A stretch of 64,000 nt of DNA from an uncultured Chloroflexia bacterium (GTDB lineage: Bacteria; Chloroflexota; Limnocylindria; QHBO01). Below, piece after piece: positions 28,577 to 37,152 of the stretch. Position numbers and translations under genes: made by a program. Positions within the stretch are counted from its first letter, which is position 1, and each line of letters begins with the position of its first letter. The stretch is from NCBI GenBank assembly GCA_963825525.1, contig CAWGTN010000002.1, forward strand, positions 128,001 to 192,000, read 5' to 3'. Below the pieces are notes generated by a model. The model did no database searches. It was given only the letters and a program-made list of their open reading frames with translations, and had not been told where the DNA came from.

Positions 28577-29359
28577 TCAGCGAGGATCGAGCTTCAGCAG
28601 ACCGAACATCGCCCCGTGCGGATCGGTGATGATCGCGAACCGTCCACCCGGCATGTCGCTCGGCGACACCACCTCGGATGCGCCGCCATCGACCGCGCGC
28701 CGGAACGCGTCGTCGACATCGGCGACGTTGAAGTAGACCATCCAGTAGCTCGGCACCTCGGCGGGGACCATCGGCATCATCTCGAGCCCTCCGACGATCG
28801 GCTGGCCACCGGCGCTGAACGTCGTGTAGTCGGGCTGGCCTTCGCCCATCGGGCTCGTCTCGGCGGTCCATCCGAAGACATCGGCGTAGAACTTCGTCGC
28901 CTTGTCGATGCCGCGTGCGTTCAGCTCGGCCCAGCCGAACGCGCCCTCTCCCTCGGTGCGGAAGCTGCGCATGCCGGCCGCCTGCCAGGCCGATATGAAC
29001 GCGCCGCTCGCATCCTGGAAGACCGCCATGCGTCCCATGTCGCCGACGTCGAATGCCGGGGCGACGACGGTGCCGCCAGCCGCCTGGACCGCGTCGCCCA
29101 GGGCAGCGGCGTCGTCTGTCGCGAGGTAGAGCGTCCATGTGGTGGGTGCTTCGGGGTTCATCTTGCCGCCGATGCCGGCCACGTCGCCCTCGCCGTCCGC
29201 GAGCCGCGCCATGCCGTAGCCGCCGTACTGCGGATCGGGGGAGACCTCGATATTCCAGCCGAAGAGCTTGCCGTAGAACGCGCGCGACGCCTCCGGGTCA
29301 GGGCTCGAGAGCTCTACCCACGCCGGGCGCCCCGTCGCGATCGCCGTCTGGTCTGCCAT
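28577..29359 (-). CDS. Two-domain VOC/glyoxalase family protein
   Basis: Duplicated W.EL...FY..(L/V)FGW...D(P/A)xGA motifs; GAGGAG RBS. Confidence 0.9.
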   Translation of the reverse strand: MADQTAIATGRPAWVELSSPDPEASRAFYGKLFGWNIEVSPDPQYGGYGMARLADGEGDVAGIGGKMNPEAPTTWTLYLATDDAAALGDAVQAAGGTVVAPAFDVGDMGRMAVFQDASGAFISAWQAAGMRSFRTEGEGAFGWAELNARGIDKATKFYADVFGWTAETSPMGEGQPDYTTFSAGGQPIVGGLEMMPMVPAEVPSYWMVYFNVADVDDAFRRAVDGGASEVVSPSDMPGGRFAIITDPHGAMFGLLKLDPR

Positions 29360-29439
29360 GAGATCTCCTCTTCGCTCGTCGCTGATCGCGCCAAACCGCG
29401 GGTCGAGCGCGGGTGTGGCAGGAATTGACGATGGTGCCG

Positions 29440-29465
29440 CATTCTGTGCGGGCTAGGTGGGCGAA
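29440..29465 (+). repeat. Left terminal inverted repeat
   Basis: CATTCTGTGCGGGCTAGGTGGGCGAA. Confidence 0.9.
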
Positions 29466-29629
29466 ATAGCGAGGCCCGGGAGCCGGCTTGGCTCTCGGGC
29501 ACTTCGTTCACTGCCGAATAGGTGGCTCTTCGCAGGTACTGTACGCCATCGATCCGGGCGACGTGACCTGCCCTCCAGCCCAAGTGGGCTGTACCCTCAA
29601 CTGATCGGACTTATCAGGAGGGTGGATCG

Positions 29630-30691
29630 ATGCCCATGCGCTTCCGGCGCAGCATCAAGATCAGCAAGGGCGTGCGCCTCAATGTCAGCAAGAGCGGCTT
29701 CGGCGTGTCGGCTGGCGGTCGCGGTGCGCGCTACAGCGTGCACAGCTCTGGCCGGCGCACGACCTCGGTTGGCATCCCCGGTTCCGGCGTCGGCTTCGTG
29801 TCGACCTCGACGAGCGGCAGCCGGAGATCGTCCAGCGGAGGCCCTCGCTCCCGCAGCCAGCAGGTCGTGCTGCCGCCGCAGAATTACGCCGCAGTGCTGC
29901 CCAAGCCCGGGATGTTCAGCGGCAAGACCGAGAAGCGCTACCACGAGGGCGTCCATGCCTACCTGCGCGGGGAGCACCAGCAGGCGCTTACGGCGCTCGA
30001 AGATGTCCTGGCTGCCGATCCGTCTGCGCTCAGCGCGCACTTGATCGCCGCGATCTGCGTCGGCAAGGTCGATGGTCCCGATGCGGATCAGATCCGTCAC
30101 TTCGAAGCGCTGATCAGCTCCGACGCCGCGATGCCCGACAAGTTGCAGATGAAGTACCTGCCGCCGGGCATCGTCAGCCTAACGCTGATGGGCAAGATCA
30201 CCGACAACATCAATGCTGAGGTGCCCTTCGACTCCGCCGGCGCCACCCTGCTCCTGGCGGAGCACTACCAGGAGGCCGATCGGCTCGAGGACGCTATCGG
30301 TCTGGTCCAGCAGCTCTACGAGGCCAACCCGAGCGATCCGGTCATCAAGCTCTCTTTGGCCGATCTGCTGATGGCCGATGGCGACCATGACGGCGTGGTG
30401 GAAGTGGCGGCCGGCGTGACCAACGACAGCGACCTCGGGGCGGCCATGCTGCACCTGCGCGGCGCGGCGCTGTTTGCACTCGGCCATCAGACCGGCGCCC
30501 TCGACTCGTTCAAAGAGGCGCTGGCCAAGCCGAGCAGAGATGCCGAGCTGCTGAAGGTCATCCGCTATGACCGAGCACTGGCGTACGAGGTGGCAGGCCA
30601 GAAGGGCCGGGCGAAGCAGGATCTCGAGCGCATCTTCGCCCAGGATCCCAGCTACCTCGACGTTCGCGAGCGACTCGCGGGAATGGGATAG
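29630..30691 (+). CDS. DUF4236 domain plus TPR protein
   Basis: MRFRRSIKI.KGVRLNVSKSG.GVS.G...GIPGSG N-terminus; C-terminal TPR repeats. Confidence 0.85.
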   Translation: MPMRFRRSIKISKGVRLNVSKSGFGVSAGGRGARYSVHSSGRRTTSVGIPGSGVGFVSTSTSGSRRSSSGGPRSRSQQVVLPPQNYAAVLPKPGMFSGKTEKRYHEGVHAYLRGEHQQALTALEDVLAADPSALSAHLIAAICVGKVDGPDADQIRHFEALISSDAAMPDKLQMKYLPPGIVSLTLMGKITDNINAEVPFDSAGATLLLAEHYQEADRLEDAIGLVQQLYEANPSDPVIKLSLADLLMADGDHDGVVEVAAGVTNDSDLGAAMLHLRGAALFALGHQTGALDSFKEALAKPSRDAELLKVIRYDRALAYEVAGQKGRAKQDLERIFAQDPSYLDVRERLAGMG

Positions 30692-30709
30692 CCGCTCGCG
30701 GTGACGGCT

Positions 30710-31168
30710 CTACCGGCGGCGTGCTGACTTCTCTGCGAAGTGAGCGAGCTCCCGCGGCTCGCCGCGAGTTCCCAGCAGGAAGTAGCGAGGCCGCTTCGCC
30801 TCGTAGCGGCTCTCCAGCCATGGCATCCACCGAGCGAGCAGTGCAAAGCGGTCCTTCATTGACATCCCCTTGGCCCGCGGGAGTCGGATGAAGACTGCGC
30901 TGACCTTCAGCTTCTCCACCAGCGGCTTGTAGGCGGCCCGCTTCCTGGCATCGATGTCCTGGGTGATCCAGACTGCGCCCCAGTGGCCGCAGAATTTGAT
31001 GACGTCGGGATCGTCGGACGATCCCAACCCGACTTCGTCGTTGGATCGTGCGTTGAACGCGACATGCGCGAACGCGCGGGCCACGCCCGGCGCGAGGTTC
31101 TCATCGATGAGAAAGCGGACGCCGTCAGGGTCGAAGGGATCGGCTACGCGACTAGCTGGCGTTCCCAC
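30710..31168 (-). CDS. PIN-domain toxin (VapC45/DUF5615-like)
   Basis: FLIDENL...DDPDVI...WITQD; overlaps the DUF433 gene. Confidence 0.8.
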   Translation of the reverse strand: MGTPASRVADPFDPDGVRFLIDENLAPGVARAFAHVAFNARSNDEVGLGSSDDPDVIKFCGHWGAVWITQDIDARKRAAYKPLVEKLKVSAVFIRLPRAKGMSMKDRFALLARWMPWLESRYEAKRPRYFLLGTRGEPRELAHFAEKSARRR

Positions 31169-31830
31169 TCAGCCGCTCGTTCGATCTTGTCCTGGTCAAC
31201 TCCGTAGAGCCGTGCCAGTTGGGCGGGACTGTCGCCGGCGGAGATTGCTTGGAAGATCGAGCGCGTCGGGATGCGAGTCCCCTCGATACACGTGAGTCCG
31301 AACTGGGTCGCCGGGCGCGCCTCGACATCCTCGGCGGGGCGCCAGGCCGCCACGCGTTCGCCTTCGTACGTCAGTTGATGCTTGATGTCGCTGACTAGTT
31401 CCGGCACCTGCACCTGCTTGAGCTGAATGATCGTCAGCGCGACCTGACCGCCGCGGTTTGCGGCAATGACCGCGTCAGCTCCTCGATGCTGCTCGGCCGG
31501 CACCTTGATGAGGACGTCCCCACCGGCGGTCCAGAGACCCTGATGAACGAATGGATGGCCCCAGCCGAAGCGCTGCCGTAGGTCAGCTTCGGCCTTCATC
31601 ACTTCGCGCAGTTTCACGCCGTGGCGACGGAACTCGTGCACGAACAACAGGGAGACCAGGTCGTCGAAGCTGACGAGATCGTCACGCCAGGTCCTCCCCC
31701 TGCCTTCTCGCTCAAGCCATCGGCGCGCTGTACTGGACGGGATCCGCGCGTAGCGCGATGCGTCGGCAATCGAGTACAGGCCAAGATGCGTCACTTCAGC
31801 GGTCATTGCTGTCATCGTACTTGCTGTCAC
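31144..31830 (-). CDS. DUF433 antitoxin with N-terminal HTH (VapB45-like)
   Basis: LYSIADASRY..IP..T.RRW; FGLTCIEGTRIP...GDS..LA..YG. Confidence 0.85.
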   Translation of the reverse strand: MTASTMTAMTAEVTHLGLYSIADASRYARIPSSTARRWLEREGRGRTWRDDLVSFDDLVSLLFVHEFRRHGVKLREVMKAEADLRQRFGWGHPFVHQGLWTAGGDVLIKVPAEQHRGADAVIAANRGGQVALTIIQLKQVQVPELVSDIKHQLTYEGERVAAWRPAEDVEARPATQFGLTCIEGTRIPTRSIFQAISAGDSPAQLARLYGVDQDKIERAAEWERQLVA

Positions 31831-31833
31831 GCT

Positions 31834-33972
31834 TCAGAAGTCCTCGCCCGCTGGTACGAGATCGGCCGGGACGGGTGCCGTTGGCGGCGGCGTTTCCTTC
31901 TTTCGCTTCGGGCTCCCGGTCCCCTTCGTCCGCCCCGGCTTCTTGGTCTTCCGGCGCTTCGCCTGGTCGTGGCACTCCTTGCAGTTGTTCAGCTGCTTGG
32001 CGCGAGCGAAGACGTAGGCCTGCCATTCGTGGCCTGCCGCCTCGCACCTCCACCAGACCTTGCGTCCGGATCCTGGCGTGACCTCGTGAGGTCGCAGCTG
32101 GCCATTCCTTTCGGGATGCCACTCGCGCGCCAGGTGCGGAGAGTCGGCCGCGAGCGAGTCCTTCGGGTGTACCCGATTGCCCATGCAGAATGGACAGCGA
32201 CTGAGGTGTGCGGCGCGGTCAGTGATGCGGGCCGCCCAGACGTGGTCCTCGTCGTGGTGGCACTGCCAGAACACCCGTGACGTGCTCGTGGCCCGCAGCG
32301 TGGTCGGATCGCTACCCCAGTTGAGGCTGTAGTCCCAGTCGCGCATGAGATCGGATAGGTCGGCTACGCATTTCCCACGAACACTTCGGCGTCTTCGTGG
32401 CTCCGCCCGTCGTCGTCGAGTCCCGCGATGCAAAGGCTTCTGCCCCGCCGCGCTCCGTCGCGCCTCTTCTTCCTGGTAGCGCCGATACTTGATGGCCGCG
32501 CTCGTGCGGCGCTTGGCGACCTTCTCCTCGTGGAGCTGACGCATCTCGGCGTCGTGAACCAGCTGCGCCAGCGAGCTGCGGCCGCCGTGGTCTTCCCAGG
32601 CGTGCCAGTCGGCCACGTTCGAGCTGTGAGCGGTCGCGGTGAAGTGCTGGCGCAGAACGGAGAGGATCACGCCCTTGGATGCGTTGCCGCGGATCGACAG
32701 CATCATCAGCGCGAGGATCTTGTTCAGCCGGCGGGCGTTCTGGTAGCGGCCCGCCCGCGGCTTGATGTACGTCGCCAGGTGCTCGCGGATCGTCCCTTCG
32801 ACGTTCCCGCTGCCGACGGGCCTGTCGCGTCCGGTGCTCACCAACCGGCTGCGGTTGTCCTCGGCCAGCAGGCACTGCACCTGGATGAGGGGATCGTTCG
32901 TGGCTATCCACGACCGCAGCTCGGTGCGATCCGGCGGGACGTGCTCATCCACCATGGCCTTGAACAGATCCCACTCGGCGAGGCTGCCCTGGCAGTAGGT
33001 CATCTGGTTGAACAGTGGGTGCGGCTCAAATTCCTGGATCTGCTGGTTCCACGGCCACATGGCGCGCTTGGGCTTCTGGAGCTTGATTGGGTCGGTGATG
33101 CGCACGGTGCGCTCCACGCCATCGAGGACGGCGTAGTCCTCCATCAGACGCTTGAGGTGGTCTCGCGAGCGGAACAGGATGGCGTTCGGCCAGACCTCGC
33201 GGACCGCCTTGGCGATGCCGCGATCCAGGTCGGCGACGACCCACTCGGGCTCGCCGGCAAGGGTCGAGAAGAAGTCGCGCCATGAGTACGAGTCCTTGCC
33301 CCCCTGGACCTGGATGAGACACGGCTTGCCCTTTTGGCCAGTGTGGTCGATCGCCACCATGATCTCGCCGGCGTTGAGGTCGCCCACCTTTACGCCATCG
33401 CGGTAGCCGCGCGTGCGTAGCGGCATGGAGTCGATCGCGATGACCTTCGGCCACTCCTTCGGCGCCAGCGCATCGATAACGATCGGGGCATAAGCGTCGA
33501 TGTAGCCGCTGGCCAAGTGACCTTCCTGGCTCGTCTGCCCCGGGCCGATGTGTCTCCACTGGCGCCGGACCGTGCGGTGGATGTCCTCGCGCCGCTTCTT
33601 GCTCGAGCGGCGCTGAGACCCGCCGTTGCTGACGTGATCGAGCAGATCGGCCATCTCGGCCAAGGCGAACAGAAAGTGTCGCCCGGTGCGATGACCCTCA
33701 TGCCGCTCGAACTCGTGCTCGCATGTCCAGCAGGCTTGGCCGGAGTGCGGATGCGACGGAGACGGCTGGCGGACGGGACGCGGCGGCGCGAAGGCGTGCA
33801 GTCGCCGGCCGTTGACGATGCAGCGATAACGCGGCCGGCGGTGCTTGTCGTTCCAGGTGCCGAAGTAGCCGTCGAGGCGGACGGTGCTGGTCGGGTGGCG
33901 CGGGCAGCTGGGTCGGTGAGCGTCCATCCGTGGCCGCCCCCGTCCCCGCTTGACCTGACCCGTGCTCCCCAT
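31834..33972 (-). CDS. Mutator/IS256-like DDE transposase fused to DUF4379-type zinc-ribbon repeats
   Basis: AIDSMP, VVADLDRGIAKAVREVWPNA..FRSRDHLKR, GNVEG; C-terminal VFWQC..H.W..R..CPFC and EWHPERN..TPGSGRKVWWRC..GHEW..CKEC. Confidence 0.75.
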   Translation of the reverse strand: MGSTGQVKRGRGRPRMDAHRPSCPRHPTSTVRLDGYFGTWNDKHRRPRYRCIVNGRRLHAFAPPRPVRQPSPSHPHSGQACWTCEHEFERHEGHRTGRHFLFALAEMADLLDHVSNGGSQRRSSKKRREDIHRTVRRQWRHIGPGQTSQEGHLASGYIDAYAPIVIDALAPKEWPKVIAIDSMPLRTRGYRDGVKVGDLNAGEIMVAIDHTGQKGKPCLIQVQGGKDSYSWRDFFSTLAGEPEWVVADLDRGIAKAVREVWPNAILFRSRDHLKRLMEDYAVLDGVERTVRITDPIKLQKPKRAMWPWNQQIQEFEPHPLFNQMTYCQGSLAEWDLFKAMVDEHVPPDRTELRSWIATNDPLIQVQCLLAEDNRSRLVSTGRDRPVGSGNVEGTIREHLATYIKPRAGRYQNARRLNKILALMMLSIRGNASKGVILSVLRQHFTATAHSSNVADWHAWEDHGGRSSLAQLVHDAEMRQLHEEKVAKRRTSAAIKYRRYQEEEARRSAAGQKPLHRGTRRRRAEPRRRRSVRGKCVADLSDLMRDWDYSLNWGSDPTTLRATSTSRVFWQCHHDEDHVWAARITDRAAHLSRCPFCMGNRVHPKDSLAADSPHLAREWHPERNGQLRPHEVTPGSGRKVWWRCEAAGHEWQAYVFARAKQLNNCKECHDQAKRRKTKKPGRTKGTGSPKRKKETPPPTAPVPADLVPAGEDF

Positions 33973-34025
33973 GAGCTCGATGCTGACGGGTAAATGCGAC
34001 AGCTTCGATGGCGCGAAGGTCCCAT

Positions 34026-35684
34026 CTATTCGTCGAGGTGCACCACCGTCTCGTCCCACGTGATCCCGCACTCCTCGCAGAGCCGCTCGTCCCGGAGTCG
34101 GAGTCGGAAGTGGATGCCGGGGGCAATAGATCGGTCGACCGCCACTAGGAAGGCATGCGGCGATGCGTCGGATGTGCATCCGAAGTTGTCCGGAACTTCG
34201 TCGAGGAACAGGTCGGCGGACAGCTGTTCAAACTCCCCGTACATCAACCCTTCTTGCACCTCCACGCCGACACCCGTGAACGCGATCCACGGACACGTGC
34301 TGCTGATGGGGGGCACGAACTGCACAACGAACTCGCTGTCGAAGTCGACCGTCGGCGGCGCTCCGCCAGACTGCGAGAACCACAGGCGCGGGAATTCCTC
34401 GGCAGTCAGAGCGACATCCACGATCTCGGAGCTGACTGTTACAGCCAGCTGGTTCGCCGTCGAGGATGCCAGCAGGCGCCAGCCGTCGCCCGACGCGGGC
34501 TGAACGCCGGGTGGCGGCGTCCACAGCGGATCCGCGAGCGGCGCCTCGACCACCGGATCCGGGCCATCCCCATGGATCTCGCCGACGAGGAACTGCTGCT
34601 CGCACCACAACTGCTGCTCCTCGGGGCTCATCCGTGGGAAGCCCTCCAACCGCGGCGCCTTGGTGCATACGACCGCACCGGGCCCGAAGGATCCGGTGAT
34701 CTCCACCTCCTCTCCGCGCTTGACGCGGTCGTCGTTGAGCCAGGCGAGCGTCAGGGGATCGGTGAACATGTGCAGCGGAAAGAAGCGGTACCCAGACTCC
34801 ATGCCCGGCGGAACGAATGAGGCGTTGGGTAGGGCGGTGAGATAGGCCGGATCCCCCGGGTATAGGGCTTCCCCCTGCAAGCCCCCGGACAGCACGCCGC
34901 GCATCGTGATGATTTCTGCGATGTCGTAGCACTGATGGCGCACGGGCTCGGGAATGCGATACAGGTCTTCAGGGCGATCCGGACACGTCCAGTCCACCGC
35001 TTCGAGCGTTGGGCCGACGAGAGTCTCAGGCGCCGGGATGCCCCAGCCCGGGGAGCTCAAACCCGCAACTTCGAGGTTGGCCGCCACCCAGCCGAAGACC
35101 CACTCGTTCGGCGCACCCGACTGGCAGCAGAACTCGAACTCGACGCGGTACCACTCGGTCTCGCCGTCGTGCAGCACGTCAACCACCAGGACGTGGTGAT
35201 CTGGCTCGAGGAGGGCCCACTGGCTGCCCCCGGGCTCATCGACGACCGCAGCCGCCCCGCTCACGACGGCCAATGTGCCCGGGCCGATTGCCGCATCGAC
35301 ATCGGTGGGAGATGGCACGGGGCTTGGCGGCAGCGCAGACGGCGCTGGAGCCGTGGGCCTGGCCGAGGGCGATGGAGCGGGCGTGGCGACCAGCTGCGAG
35401 CCGATGGCCACGCTGCCGATCGCCAACAGCACCGCGACCCCCGCGGCGGCGACGCCTGTCCATGAGCGCCGTCCAATGGCAGGGGCGACAAGGAGTGGAT
35501 CGGCCGGCAGTGGCTCGGTGCGGCGCCGCGCCAGGGCGGACTCCAGTCCATTGGCGAAGGAATGGGCAGCGTTTGCGGTTGCCCGACACGCTTCGCACCC
35601 GGCCAGATGCTCGGCTTCGGCCGCCGTCAGCTCGCGCCCTTCGGCGATGGCGGCATGGATCCGGCTCGCGTAGCGGTCGCTCAT
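34026..35684 (-). CDS. Zinc-binding anti-sigma factor with large extracytoplasmic domain
   Basis: HLAGCEAC (HxxxCxxC), TM helix, Pro-rich linker; ATGA coupling to the sigma gene. Confidence 0.75.
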   Translation of the reverse strand: MSDRYASRIHAAIAEGRELTAAEAEHLAGCEACRATANAAHSFANGLESALARRRTEPLPADPLLVAPAIGRRSWTGVAAAGVAVLLAIGSVAIGSQLVATPAPSPSARPTAPAPSALPPSPVPSPTDVDAAIGPGTLAVVSGAAAVVDEPGGSQWALLEPDHHVLVVDVLHDGETEWYRVEFEFCCQSGAPNEWVFGWVAANLEVAGLSSPGWGIPAPETLVGPTLEAVDWTCPDRPEDLYRIPEPVRHQCYDIAEIITMRGVLSGGLQGEALYPGDPAYLTALPNASFVPPGMESGYRFFPLHMFTDPLTLAWLNDDRVKRGEEVEITGSFGPGAVVCTKAPRLEGFPRMSPEEQQLWCEQQFLVGEIHGDGPDPVVEAPLADPLWTPPPGVQPASGDGWRLLASSTANQLAVTVSSEIVDVALTAEEFPRLWFSQSGGAPPTVDFDSEFVVQFVPPISSTCPWIAFTGVGVEVQEGLMYGEFEQLSADLFLDEVPDNFGCTSDASPHAFLVAVDRSIAPGIHFRLRLRDERLCEECGITWDETVVHLDE

Positions 35685-36206
35685 CGATCGGCTTCCTGCC
35701 AGGCCGCTGCCAGGCGCCGGCGGGCGCGGAAGGCGATGGTGCGGGCGTTGGTGTGGGTCGTGCCGACGATGCGTGCGATCTCGTCGAGCTGGTAGCCATA
35801 GGCGTGCTGAAGGACGAGCACTGTGCGCTCACGGGCCGGGAGCTGGTCGACCAGCTCATCCAGGCTCGCTCGCGGCGGGGTGTTGGCCTGCCTCTGCGCC
35901 AGCAGCGGCAGGCGGTCGAGGAGGCCGCGCCGGCGCCGGTGATGGTTGAAGGCAGTCGTCGCCACGATGCGGGTGAGCCACGCGTCGAGTGCTCCTGACA
36001 TCGCGGAGCTGCCCGATCTTGGCGCGCGCCCGCAGGTAGGCGTCCTGGACCACGTCCTCGGCGGTGTCGGGGCCGACCAGGCTGCGCGCCGCGGCCAACA
36101 GCCGCGGCTTCAGCTCGACGAAGCGCTCGTCCAGTAGCCGATCGGTTGTCTTGATAGCCGGTACCGCGACGGGCTCGGTCACTTCCACCCCAACTGTCGT
36201 AATCAT
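35681..36206 (-). CDS. ECF sigma factor (frameshift ~36000)
   Basis: AEDVVQDAYLRA region 2; LPARERTVLVL..GY..EIA region 4. Confidence 0.8.
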
Positions 36207-36400
36207 CGCATTGACAGGACACCCGGGATCGTCGCGGTGTTGCGCCGCTTGTCAACGAGCCGGTGAAGAAGTGTCCCGTCTGCGGCGGTAGGCGGATCTC
36301 GCGCGGCGCCTCTCTGCCATCGGAAAGGTTGGTGTAACGCGATCAGGTATGGTGCGTGGGATCGGGTCGAGCCCGCGCGAGCTCCCCGAGTGGCGACGAA

Positions 36401-36426
36401 TTCGCCCACCCAGCCCGCACAGAATG
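36401..36426 (-). repeat. Right terminal inverted repeat
   Basis: Reverse complement reads CATTCTGTGCGGGCTGGGTGGGCGAA. Confidence 0.9.
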
Positions 36427-36513
36427 TGGTGCCGGAGGTGGGACTTGAACCCACACGAGCTTGCACTCATCGGTGTTTGAGACCGACGCGTCTGCCGATT
36501 CCGCCACTCCGGC
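36427..36513 (-). tRNA. tRNA-Leu(CAA)
   Basis: GCCGGAGTGGCGGAATCGGCAGACGCG-TCGGT-CTCAAAC-ACCGA, long variable arm, GGTTCAAGTCC, CTCCGGCACCA; TATAAT upstream. Confidence 0.97.
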
Positions 36514-36540
36514 CGGGGGAGCCGTCATTATAGGAAGCCA

Positions 36541-37152
36541 ATGGTCGAGCCCCCCGGAAGACTCCCGCTCGTCGCACGCAGCCGCTTCCGGACGAGGCGG
36601 ATGTCATCGCGCGTGCGGCTGACGGAGACCGGACGGCGTTCGCCCAGCTCATGGAGCACTACCAGAGTGCCTGCTTCGGCCTCGCCATGCGCCTTCTCAG
36701 CGATGCCGATCAGGCCGCCGATGCCACGCAGGACGCATTCATCCACGCCTATCGGGCCATCGGCTCGATACCGCGGCGGGATCTTTCGCTCGTGGCTGCT
36801 GCGCATCACCGCCAACGCCAGCTACGACATCCTGCGACGCCAGCAGCGCCGCCCGACGACCACGCTTCCCGACCCGGACGAGGGGGCGCCCGAGCTGCCC
36901 GATCTCGGCGCCGTCAATCCGCTGATCGAGGCCACCAAGAGCGAGCTGTACCGACACCTGGACGTGGCGCTCAGGAAGCTGCCGGAGGACCAGCGAACCG
37001 CGATCGTGCTCTGCGACGTCTACGGCATGGACTACAACGAGGTGGCCGCGATGACGCAATCCGCCCTCGGAACGGTGAAGTCACGCATCCATCGGGGACG
37101 GCTGCGGCTGCGAGAGCTCATGGCCGAGCACCGGGAACTCTTCGCGAGATGA
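36541..37152 (+). CDS. ECF sigma factor (frameshifted)
   Basis: AADATQDAF; FRSWLLRI..N; LPEDQR..GTVKSRIHRGR. Confidence 0.85.
   Translation: MVEPPGRLPLVARSRFRTRRMSSRVRLTETGRRSPSSWSTTRVPASASPCAFSAMPIRPPMPRRTHSSTPIGPSARYRGGIFRSWLLRITANASYDILRRQQRRPTTTLPDPDEGAPELPDLGAVNPLIEATKSELYRHLDVALRKLPEDQRTAIVLCDVYGMDYNEVAAMTQSALGTVKSRIHRGRLRLRELMAEHRELFAR

Follow-up and report, generated by a model that had tools for sequence, protein, structure and literature searches.

A probable DDE transposon at the CCA end of a tRNA-Leu gene, and a clade of relatives that integrates at tRNA 3' ends

What kind of mobile element inserts exactly at the CCA end of a tRNA gene and leaves that gene intact? The question is raised by a 64,000-nucleotide stretch of DNA from an uncultured Chloroflexia bacterium (contig CAWGTN010000002.1, positions 128,001 to 192,000; hereafter "the window", and coordinates are positions within it unless another locus is named). 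A 6,987 bp segment of the window (29440-36426, both inverted repeats included) directly adjoins a tRNA-Leu(CAA) gene. We consider it very probable that this segment is a DDE transposon of a distinct, apparently undescribed insertion sequence (IS) family, one clade of which integrates at the 3' ends of tRNA genes.

The element is bounded by two 26 bp inverted repeats (Table 1), complementary at 25/26 positions with a single A/G mismatch. Searching with the inverted-repeat pattern (up to three mismatches) returns two matches in the window, both of them element ends, and none in 100 shuffles; in the 2.58-Mb, four-contig genome, the two element ends are again the only matches, and the genome carries one copy of the element. 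The left end reads ...GGAATTGACGA then TGGTGCCG then CATTCTGTGCGGGCTAGGTGGGCGAA..., and the right end ...TTCGCCCACCCAGCCCGCACAGAATG then TGGTGCCG then GAGGTGGGACTTGAACCC...; that is, the two copies of TGGTGCCG (29432-29439 and 36427-36434) are perfect, and abut both element ends without a gap. As an 8-mer, TGGTGCCG is not rare by itself (eight copies in the window versus 3.8 expected), and its evidential weight comes from this exact abutment. Since ARAGORN and Rfam both put the CCA end of the tRNA at 36427, the right-hand (proximal) copy is the tRNA's own last 8 nt, CGGCACCA. The preliminary description of this locus, made from the letters alone, had reported the inverted repeats, the 6,987 bp segment, the 8 bp repeat and the intact tRNA-Leu; all are present where it had placed them. 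An Rfam scan of 29000-37000 gave no RNA besides tRNA-Leu, a scan for sigma-70-like promoters found none, and terminator-like sites occur at chance level.

Table 1. Features of the element and its target in the window
Feature	Coordinates	Strand	Details
Distal copy of target-site duplication	29432-29439	+	TGGTGCCG, reverse complement of tRNA-Leu 3' end CGGCACCA
Terminal inverted repeat far from tRNA	29440-29465	+	CATTCTGTGCGGGCTAGGTGGGCGAA, 26 bp
Cargo: DUF4236 and TPR-repeat protein	29630-30691	+	353 aa; PF14020 9e-19; TPR_14 1e-13
Cargo: DUF5615/PIN-like protein	30710-31168	-	152 aa; PF18480 3e-6; PIN_10 8e-5
Cargo: DUF433 protein with N-terminal HTH	31144-31830	-	228 aa; PF04255 2e-9
Transposase	31834-33927	-	697 aa; start as used by database copies
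Cargo: 552-aa protein	34026-35684	-	N-terminal H-x3-C-x2-C motif, then hydrophobic segment
Cargo: ECF-type sigma factor in two frames	35681-36206	-	region 2, 36206-35856; regions 2.4-4, 36001-35681
Terminal inverted repeat adjoining tRNA	36401-36426	-	26 bp; 25/26 identical to other end
Target tRNA-Leu(CAA), intact	36427-36513	-	ARAGORN and Rfam; CCA end at 36427

Site specificity for tRNA ends had been suggested on the basis of this one insertion, and the flanks of homologues extend it beyond the single case. A database search with the transposase recovers 108 homologues (39-78% identity, self-matches excluded), many of them on contigs of 2.2-3 kb and named at NCBI and JGI just "zinc-ribbon domain-containing" or "hypothetical". 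A genome scan (one genome per species) provided 29 loci, all from metagenome-assembled genomes and mostly from Chloroflexota and Actinomycetota, and a metagenome scan a further 15. A tRNA 3' end faces the element in 22 of these 44 loci (12/29 genome, 10/15 metagenome). Nine of the 12 tRNAs in the genome loci lie upstream and co-directional, and three downstream and convergent; across all 22 loci, each supported by ARAGORN, 16 are upstream and six downstream, indicating that either orientation occurs (some of these loci are probably the same event). A conserved repeat, (C)CCCTGTTTTATCTGCGTGGGAAT, begins 0-3 nt after the CCA in 11 of these 12 genome loci, L028 being the exception. The two closest relatives are L063 (55% identity) and L064 (52%), whose repeats resemble those in the window (CTTTCTGTGCGAAC...GGGGAAA); the former begins right after a tRNA-Pro gene and the latter right after a tRNA-Arg gene, both with a perfect 8 bp duplication.

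Altogether, 13 target tRNA species were found: Leu-CAA, Arg-CCG, Arg-TCT, Arg-TCG, Ala-CGC, Val-GAC, Val-CAC, Gly-CCC, Pro-GGG, Pro-CGG, Lys-CTT, Gln-CTG and His-GTG. Two points follow. Firstly, the 8-mer varies with the tRNA, and is therefore a true target duplication. Secondly, identical repeat variants lie at different tRNAs (for example, at Lys in L033 and at Gln in L071), and the specificity is therefore generic for tRNA ends.

The same pattern emerges when every repeat end is considered. Over all loci there are 77 repeat ends with 56 distinct flanks, 49 of which are long enough for judging: 18 show a tRNA T-arm plus CCA, and 19 show TGG plus 5 nt, as expected of the distal copy. Among 20,000 random positions in the same loci, these two flank types occur 57 and 1,523 times, respectively. 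The other 12 flanks comprise two spurious pattern matches, three distal copies with one mismatch, a tRNA-Pro end missed by the pattern, two flanks with a 16-nt tRNA-Arg 3' piece, one flank between tandem elements (L065), two degenerate flanks and one without any tRNA-like sequence (L032). The loose second repeat pattern gave two internal matches, in L009 and L033, which were judged spurious. A perfect 8-nt repeat is present in 11 of the 20 relatives for which both ends are available (L012, L019, L024, L027, L029, L033, L063, L064, L065, L067 and L071); ten of these duplications abut a tRNA end, and that of L065 abuts a second element copy. Another four of the 20 have a duplication with one mismatch (the L004/L035/L036 group, L021, L023 and L038).

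In the window and among relatives, then, a repeat lies 0-3 nt past an encoded CCA and the last 8 nt of the tRNA recur at the other end, and it is by this arrangement that we define the clade. Its members integrate at the tRNA 3' end, with the inverted repeat right after the encoded CCA and the last 8 bp (NNNNNCCA) duplicated distally. Because those 8 bp are duplicated, the tRNA gene remains complete and the insertion is harmless.

Three further observations concern individual targets. In L065 (1-60), two tandem elements are separated by a spacer consisting of exactly the 8 bp duplication, GCGCGCCA, as expected if the same tRNA end were hit twice. In L067 (16020-16075) and L023 (4778-4860), a repeat end abuts just the last 16 nt of a tRNA-Arg; this piece is the 3' arm of a perfect 12-bp hairpin, GCGCGCCCGACA-CC-TGTCGGGCGCGC, and in L067 no transposase gene follows. 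Such flanks could be explained by palindromic duplication of the flank, or by ~16 bp being sufficient as a target. Lastly, a genome of the window's genus contains only the C-terminal part of a transposase, with a family-type repeat abutting the 3' end of tRNA-His (L006/L086, on G002:C18); this is a decayed second insertion within the genus.

Which enzyme is available to carry out these insertions? In line with the earlier statement that the element has no tyrosine or serine integrase and no TnsABC or TniQ genes, Pfam scans of its nine main open reading frames (ORFs) revealed no integrase, resolvase, Tns or TniQ domain. The central ORF had been described as DDE-like and as spanning 31834-33972; the DDE-like character stands, and the upper coordinate, which is the start on the minus strand, is corrected to 33927 (Table 1). 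A longer open frame extends to 34179. An alignment of 29 sequences (A1) shows invariant D166, D233/D235, S254-R255-x-H257 and E377, alongside several invariant Trp, Cys and His residues. The protein has Cys/His motifs at its N-terminus, an RNase-H-like DDE core with an alpha-helical insertion domain, and two C-terminal DUF4379 treble-clef zinc ribbons (about residues 520-660). An AlphaFold model (mean pLDDT 77.9) places D166 within a beta strand, D233 immediately after a strand, and E377 in a helix. Between the second D and the E, an insertion spanning residues 255-370 is predominantly helical; further along come a long helix (453-493) and two small zinc-ribbon units at ~550-660.

Comparison of the model with PDB structures by Foldseek places ISCth4, of the IS256 family, in all top five positions (6xgx/6xg8; E 3e-9 to 8e-7; target TM 0.46-0.51). 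Lower matches include the P element and Hermes transposases (~5e-4) and retroviral integrase cores (~1e-3), while the C-terminus matches DUF4379 mitoribosome proteins; DUF4379 proteins are also the only matches in a PDB sequence search. Among the 29 family members, profile matches were obtained to DUF4379 (28/29), PF01610 (ISL3; 14/29 at E up to 1, best 3.5e-6), MULE (3/29) and PF00872 (Transposase_mut; 2/29 at E up to 1). Bit scores, which come from P0004 alone among these members, fall short of the curated Pfam cutoff for every family but DUF4379 (PF00872, 15.1 bits versus 21; PF01610, 13.6 bits versus 23). Among NCBIfam models, NF033550 (ISL3) gives 18.6-25.9 bits versus a cutoff of 180 in three of the four transposases scanned, and NF033544 (IS1249) gives 17.4 bits versus 300. 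The nearest named Atlas clusters are Transposase_mut (score 0.93), with ISL3 clusters also neighbours. Finally, the invariant S-R-x-H sits where one would expect the C/D-x-x-H motif, which we take to be a mark of IS256/Mutator transposases after the second catalytic D; serine stands in place of C/D. Structurally, the transposase is a member of the IS256/ISL3/Mutator group, yet it fits no curated IS family; the label "Mutator-type" used in the preliminary description is thus right for the superfamily, given the ISCth4 fold, and not for the family.

No full-length match to the transposase occurs in 72,556 plasmid records, in which the DUF4379 part alone finds matches. This region matches "zinc-ribbon domain-containing" genes on 136 plasmids from Bacillus, Rhodococcus, Streptomyces and others, often with several such genes per record.

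An empty site, with the left flank joined to the tRNA CCA, had been proposed as a check on the insertion, and is seen in nature, albeit with a 24-nt difference. We examined contigs from public soil sequencing runs: the X1 and X5 contigs, from two studies, join 29427 to 36427, skipping 6,999 bases and with 26 other letters between, while X2 contigs span both occupied junctions. No RNA run was listed among those containing the sequence. In the empty contigs, the right boundary is exactly the CCA end of the tRNA. On the left, the occupied allele (29427-29431) is without 24 nt of the empty allele, 2 nt from the distal duplication; this difference reflects a deletion next to the insertion or else polymorphism between strains. 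In the flank, 4/136 and 5/428 positions distinguish the empty contigs from the window, and insertion into tRNA-Leu(CAA) happened recently enough for near-identical strains to keep the empty site.

All 60 same-genus genomes retain tRNA-Leu and the gene to its right (76-86% identity; the unpublished genomes G083, G034, G006 and G204 enter only into same-genus counts and the class-wide count of 301 genomes given below). The inverted repeat after tRNA-Leu is absent from 11/11 inspected same-genus loci. An exact empty junction was unobtainable from these relatives, the downstream sequence being different in each of the 11 loci. Indeed, the DNA downstream of tRNA-Leu differs throughout these loci (L042-L052) and in several soil-run contigs, marking the position as a variable hot spot, and the glyoxalase/bleomycin-resistance-like gene in the left flank of the window (28577-29359) is located elsewhere in relatives. 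Outside the window, at G000:C2:556674-556760, a tRNA-Lys(CTT) is followed by ACC and then by CGCTCACCA, a repetition of the tRNA's last 9 nt. A 9-nt match was reached in 1 of 2,056 control pairings of tRNA tails with sequence downstream of other tRNAs. The repeat could be the footprint of an excised family element, a suggestive observation that we do not use as evidence.

Most members of the family are bare insertion sequences of 2.2-2.4 kb (2,198-2,439 bp) that hold a single gene, the DDE gene, and just ~100-250 bp of non-coding DNA. Larger members include L067 (2,847 bp), L063 (2,892 bp), L029 (3,009 bp), L064 (3,480 bp) and L069 (at least 4.1 kb), the end repeat of which abuts tRNA-Ala. The window element is the biggest seen, and the sole one with genes upstream of the transposase. 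A class-wide profile scan matched 19 of 301 genomes, G000 included; the family is patchy.

As had been noted, the passenger genes of the window element lie on both sides of the transposase, with sigma and putative anti-sigma genes on one side and the DUF433/PIN-like pair and the TPR protein on the other. Read from the tRNA along the minus strand, the order is sigma factor, 552-aa protein, transposase, DUF433 and PIN-like protein, while the DUF4236-TPR gene is on the opposite strand; this co-directional operon may receive read-through from the tRNA. The sigma frameshift lies near 36,01x, at a site covered by no other contig, and may stem from sequencing error. A second ECF sigma gene, intact, is found just beyond the element (36541-37152). 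The gene for the 552-aa protein overlaps the sigma stop with its start, and its product has no Pfam match; we read this protein as an anti-sigma factor from its H-x3-C-x2-C, presumably the motif known from such proteins. The DUF433 and PIN-like genes overlap. Their products are a candidate antitoxin (or regulator) and a candidate toxin of a two-gene module, and the pair may serve as an addiction module. In L069, the transposase is followed by a DUF433 gene (82% identical) and a PIN-like gene (74%) in the same order as in the window. Neither a Pfam match nor similarity to the window cargo was found for the additional ORFs in L063 and L064.

How far does tRNA homing reach? Genome G311 contains cousins with 26-28% identity, and these are ordinary insertion sequences located away from tRNAs. 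One type, of 2,363 bp with ends of ~60 bp, is present in two copies (L109:3414-5775 and L110:3950-6311), and the L110 copy lies inside the loop of a perfect 7-bp hairpin, GTGACAC-GAAC-GTGTCAC. The other (L108:4145-6909) measures 2,765 bp and has perfect 30-bp ends and an 8-bp duplication, CCGCTGGC. Since a cousin outside tRNA genes also generates 8 bp, the 8-bp stagger is ancestral; tRNA homing is a property of the clade at ~39% identity or more.

Our most far-reaching reading, towards which we lean with moderate confidence, is that a lone IS256/ISL3-like DDE protein recognises a feature common to all tRNA genes without the aid of any helper protein or guide RNA, and joins the element to the terminal A of the encoded CCA, duplicating 8 bp; this would be a new IS family. 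In mechanistic terms, the transposase would bind the 26-bp ends, perhaps through its N-terminal region, and D166, D233 and E377 would be the catalytic residues for cleavage and strand transfer, the staggered cuts lying 8 bp apart over tRNA positions 69-76. The features read by the protein itself would be those shared among tRNA genes (T-arm, acceptor 3' strand and CCA), and neither guide RNA nor accessory protein would take part in target reading. Movement might be copy-out-paste-in, by analogy with ISCth4 and other IS256 relatives, or cut-and-paste. As part of the far-reaching reading, the cousins at hairpin loops hint that the clade arose from hairpin-targeting ancestors and specialised on the T-arm.

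Several observations weigh against the element being a transposon of a family that homes to tRNA ends, or narrow this explanation. Transposition was not directly observed, and the element is single-copy although the genome offers 46 tRNA genes with an encoded CCA. The empty allele is not a clean reversal of the insertion (26 nt between 29427 and the tRNA end, versus 2 nt in the window), and the contigs that carry it represent strains 97-99% identical in the flank rather than the same clone. No circle junction joining the two inverted repeats occurs in the soil-run data, which were contigs only. Among the relatives with two ends, five of 20 misfit a simple duplication: L015, L066 and L068 are discordant between their ends, L018 has tRNA ends on both sides, and in L020 the flanks are distal-type but derive from two different tRNAs. 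Copies may have recombined, or short-read assembly may have produced chimeras. To these must be added the above-mentioned end of L032 that lacks a tRNA-like flank, and L037 (49% identity), where neither a convincing inverted repeat nor, within 10 kb, a tRNA is present. Scores below all curated cutoffs confine the family assignment to the superfamily level. As regards the zinc ribbons as target reader, L108 aligns through the ribbon region and yet occupies a non-tRNA site; the C-terminal ribbons alone therefore cannot explain tRNA reading.

The transposon explanation also has to be set against four others. It is possible, if rather doubtful, that the transposase recognises a DNA hairpin or cruciform, the T-arm, and cuts a fixed distance 3' of it, rather than reading the tRNA gene as such. 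The L110 copy in its hairpin loop would fit, as would the ends in L023 and L067 (16052) that abut only the 16-nt 3' arm of a 12-bp hairpin, and the 13 target tRNA species have little in common beyond T-arm and CCA. However, all target 8-mers end in CCA, which a pure structure reader would not need, the L108 site has no obvious hairpin, and the hairpin flanks of L023 and L067 may be a single inherited event. A less probable account has the window copy as an immobile relic, its cargo being ordinary host genes trapped between two old ends. The copy is indeed single, its sigma gene is frameshifted, and there is the 24-nt difference beside the left duplication; against this, the transposase frame is intact across 697 aa, the ends are 25/26 identical with a perfect duplication, and strains 97-99% identical in the flank are without the element.

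Very unlikely, in our judgement, is RNA-guided target choice, whether by an element-encoded RNA, as in IS110/IS1111, or by a tRNA transcript that tethers the transposase. The element is located where tRNA transcript is made, and contact with RNA is conceivable from the presence of DUF4379 ribbons in trypanosome mitoribosome assembly proteins; but Rfam shows only the tRNA around the element, bare elements leave little non-coding DNA for a guide, one repeat variant is found at tRNAs with different 8-mers (so that no fixed guide could match), and the enzyme is of the DDE type, not the DEDD type of IS110. We give still less credence to an integrase-type island or Tn7-like element whose att core is the 8-bp repeat and whose recombinase is elsewhere or lost. 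In its favour, tRNA 3' ends are classic targets of integrases and Tn7-like elements, the region downstream of tRNA-Leu differs in 11/11 relatives' loci, and several runs show other sequence before 36427, as at an integration hot spot. Yet the nine scanned ORFs contain no tyrosine or serine recombinase, TnsA/B/C or TniQ domain, the 26-bp ends are inverted, whereas att repeats are direct, each relative has an 8-mer that depends on the tRNA hit and hence derives from the target, and the 2.2-2.4-kb relatives contain the DDE gene alone.

The element is of interest in that a single protein seems to insert DNA at one defined nucleotide, without harm, at a site that occurs ~46 times in the genome and in every cell, while the element tolerates at least 4.9 kb of cargo. 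If the far-reaching reading is true, the element would amount to a safe-harbour integrase for bacteria that needs one protein and can carry cargo. It offers a tractable system in which to study how tRNA genes are read by a transposase, and a possible compact tool for site-directed insertion. Part of the sequence variability found downstream of tRNA genes among Chloroflexota and Actinomycetota would also be explained.

How does such an element compare with known systems? The closest structural likeness is to IS256 elements, prokaryotic relatives of eukaryotic Mutator/MULE transposons: ISCth4 is the best fold match, sharing the DDE core and alpha-helical insertion, and the 8-bp duplication and 26-bp inverted ends fall within the IS256/Mutator values (8-9 bp and ~25-40 bp). 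The window protein differs in being ~300 aa longer, in having a Cys/His region at its N-terminus and a pair of DUF4379 ribbons at its C-terminus, and in the strict tRNA-end targeting of its clade; to our knowledge, IS256 elements have no such site specificity. By sequence, ISL3 is the family matched by most members (14/29 for PF01610). An 8-bp duplication, short inverted ends and a zinc finger at the N-terminus are likewise features of ISL3 elements, whereas the window protein is much larger, carries DUF4379 ribbons, is tRNA-specific, and remains below the NF033550 and PF01610 cutoffs.

Where bacterial DDE transposons choose their targets precisely, the known cases are mostly multi-protein or RNA-guided systems (Tn7, its CRISPR-associated relatives, IS110/IS1111). 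Besides TnsB and TnsC, Tn7-like elements rely on TniQ/TnsD for target selection, and their insertions lie some way downstream. Among the literature found, the published tRNA-targeting transposons are Tn7-like, including TniQ/TnsD-directed elements of cyanobacteria (PMC9881144, PMC11837452), and they share with our element the character of a DDE-type transposon that inserts site-specifically beside tRNA genes and leaves the tRNA intact. They are set apart from the element described here by its lack of Tns domains, its apparent reliance on one protein, its insertion at the CCA itself and its 8-bp duplication. The same search of listings and abstracts, with ISfinder and supplements outside it, found no single-protein DDE element targeting tRNA ends, so that the earlier word "undescribed" holds for the literature searched, an ISfinder entry not being excluded.

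Two kinds of non-transposon system follow a comparable logic. In tyrosine-integrase islands and prophages, too, the tRNA 3' end is regenerated by a repeat, a safe-harbour arrangement; those elements use conservative site-specific recombination and an element-borne copy of the tRNA end, and each is tied to one tRNA, unlike the target-derived 8-bp duplication, inverted ends and many tRNAs per lineage found here. For the retroelements Ty3 and Dictyostelium TRE, Pol III transcription factors act as guides, and insertion takes place some distance upstream or downstream of tRNA genes. These retroelements likewise treat tRNA genes as generic, conserved and harmless landing sites; the element in the window differs from them in being a bacterial DNA transposon that inserts at the exact 3' nucleotide.

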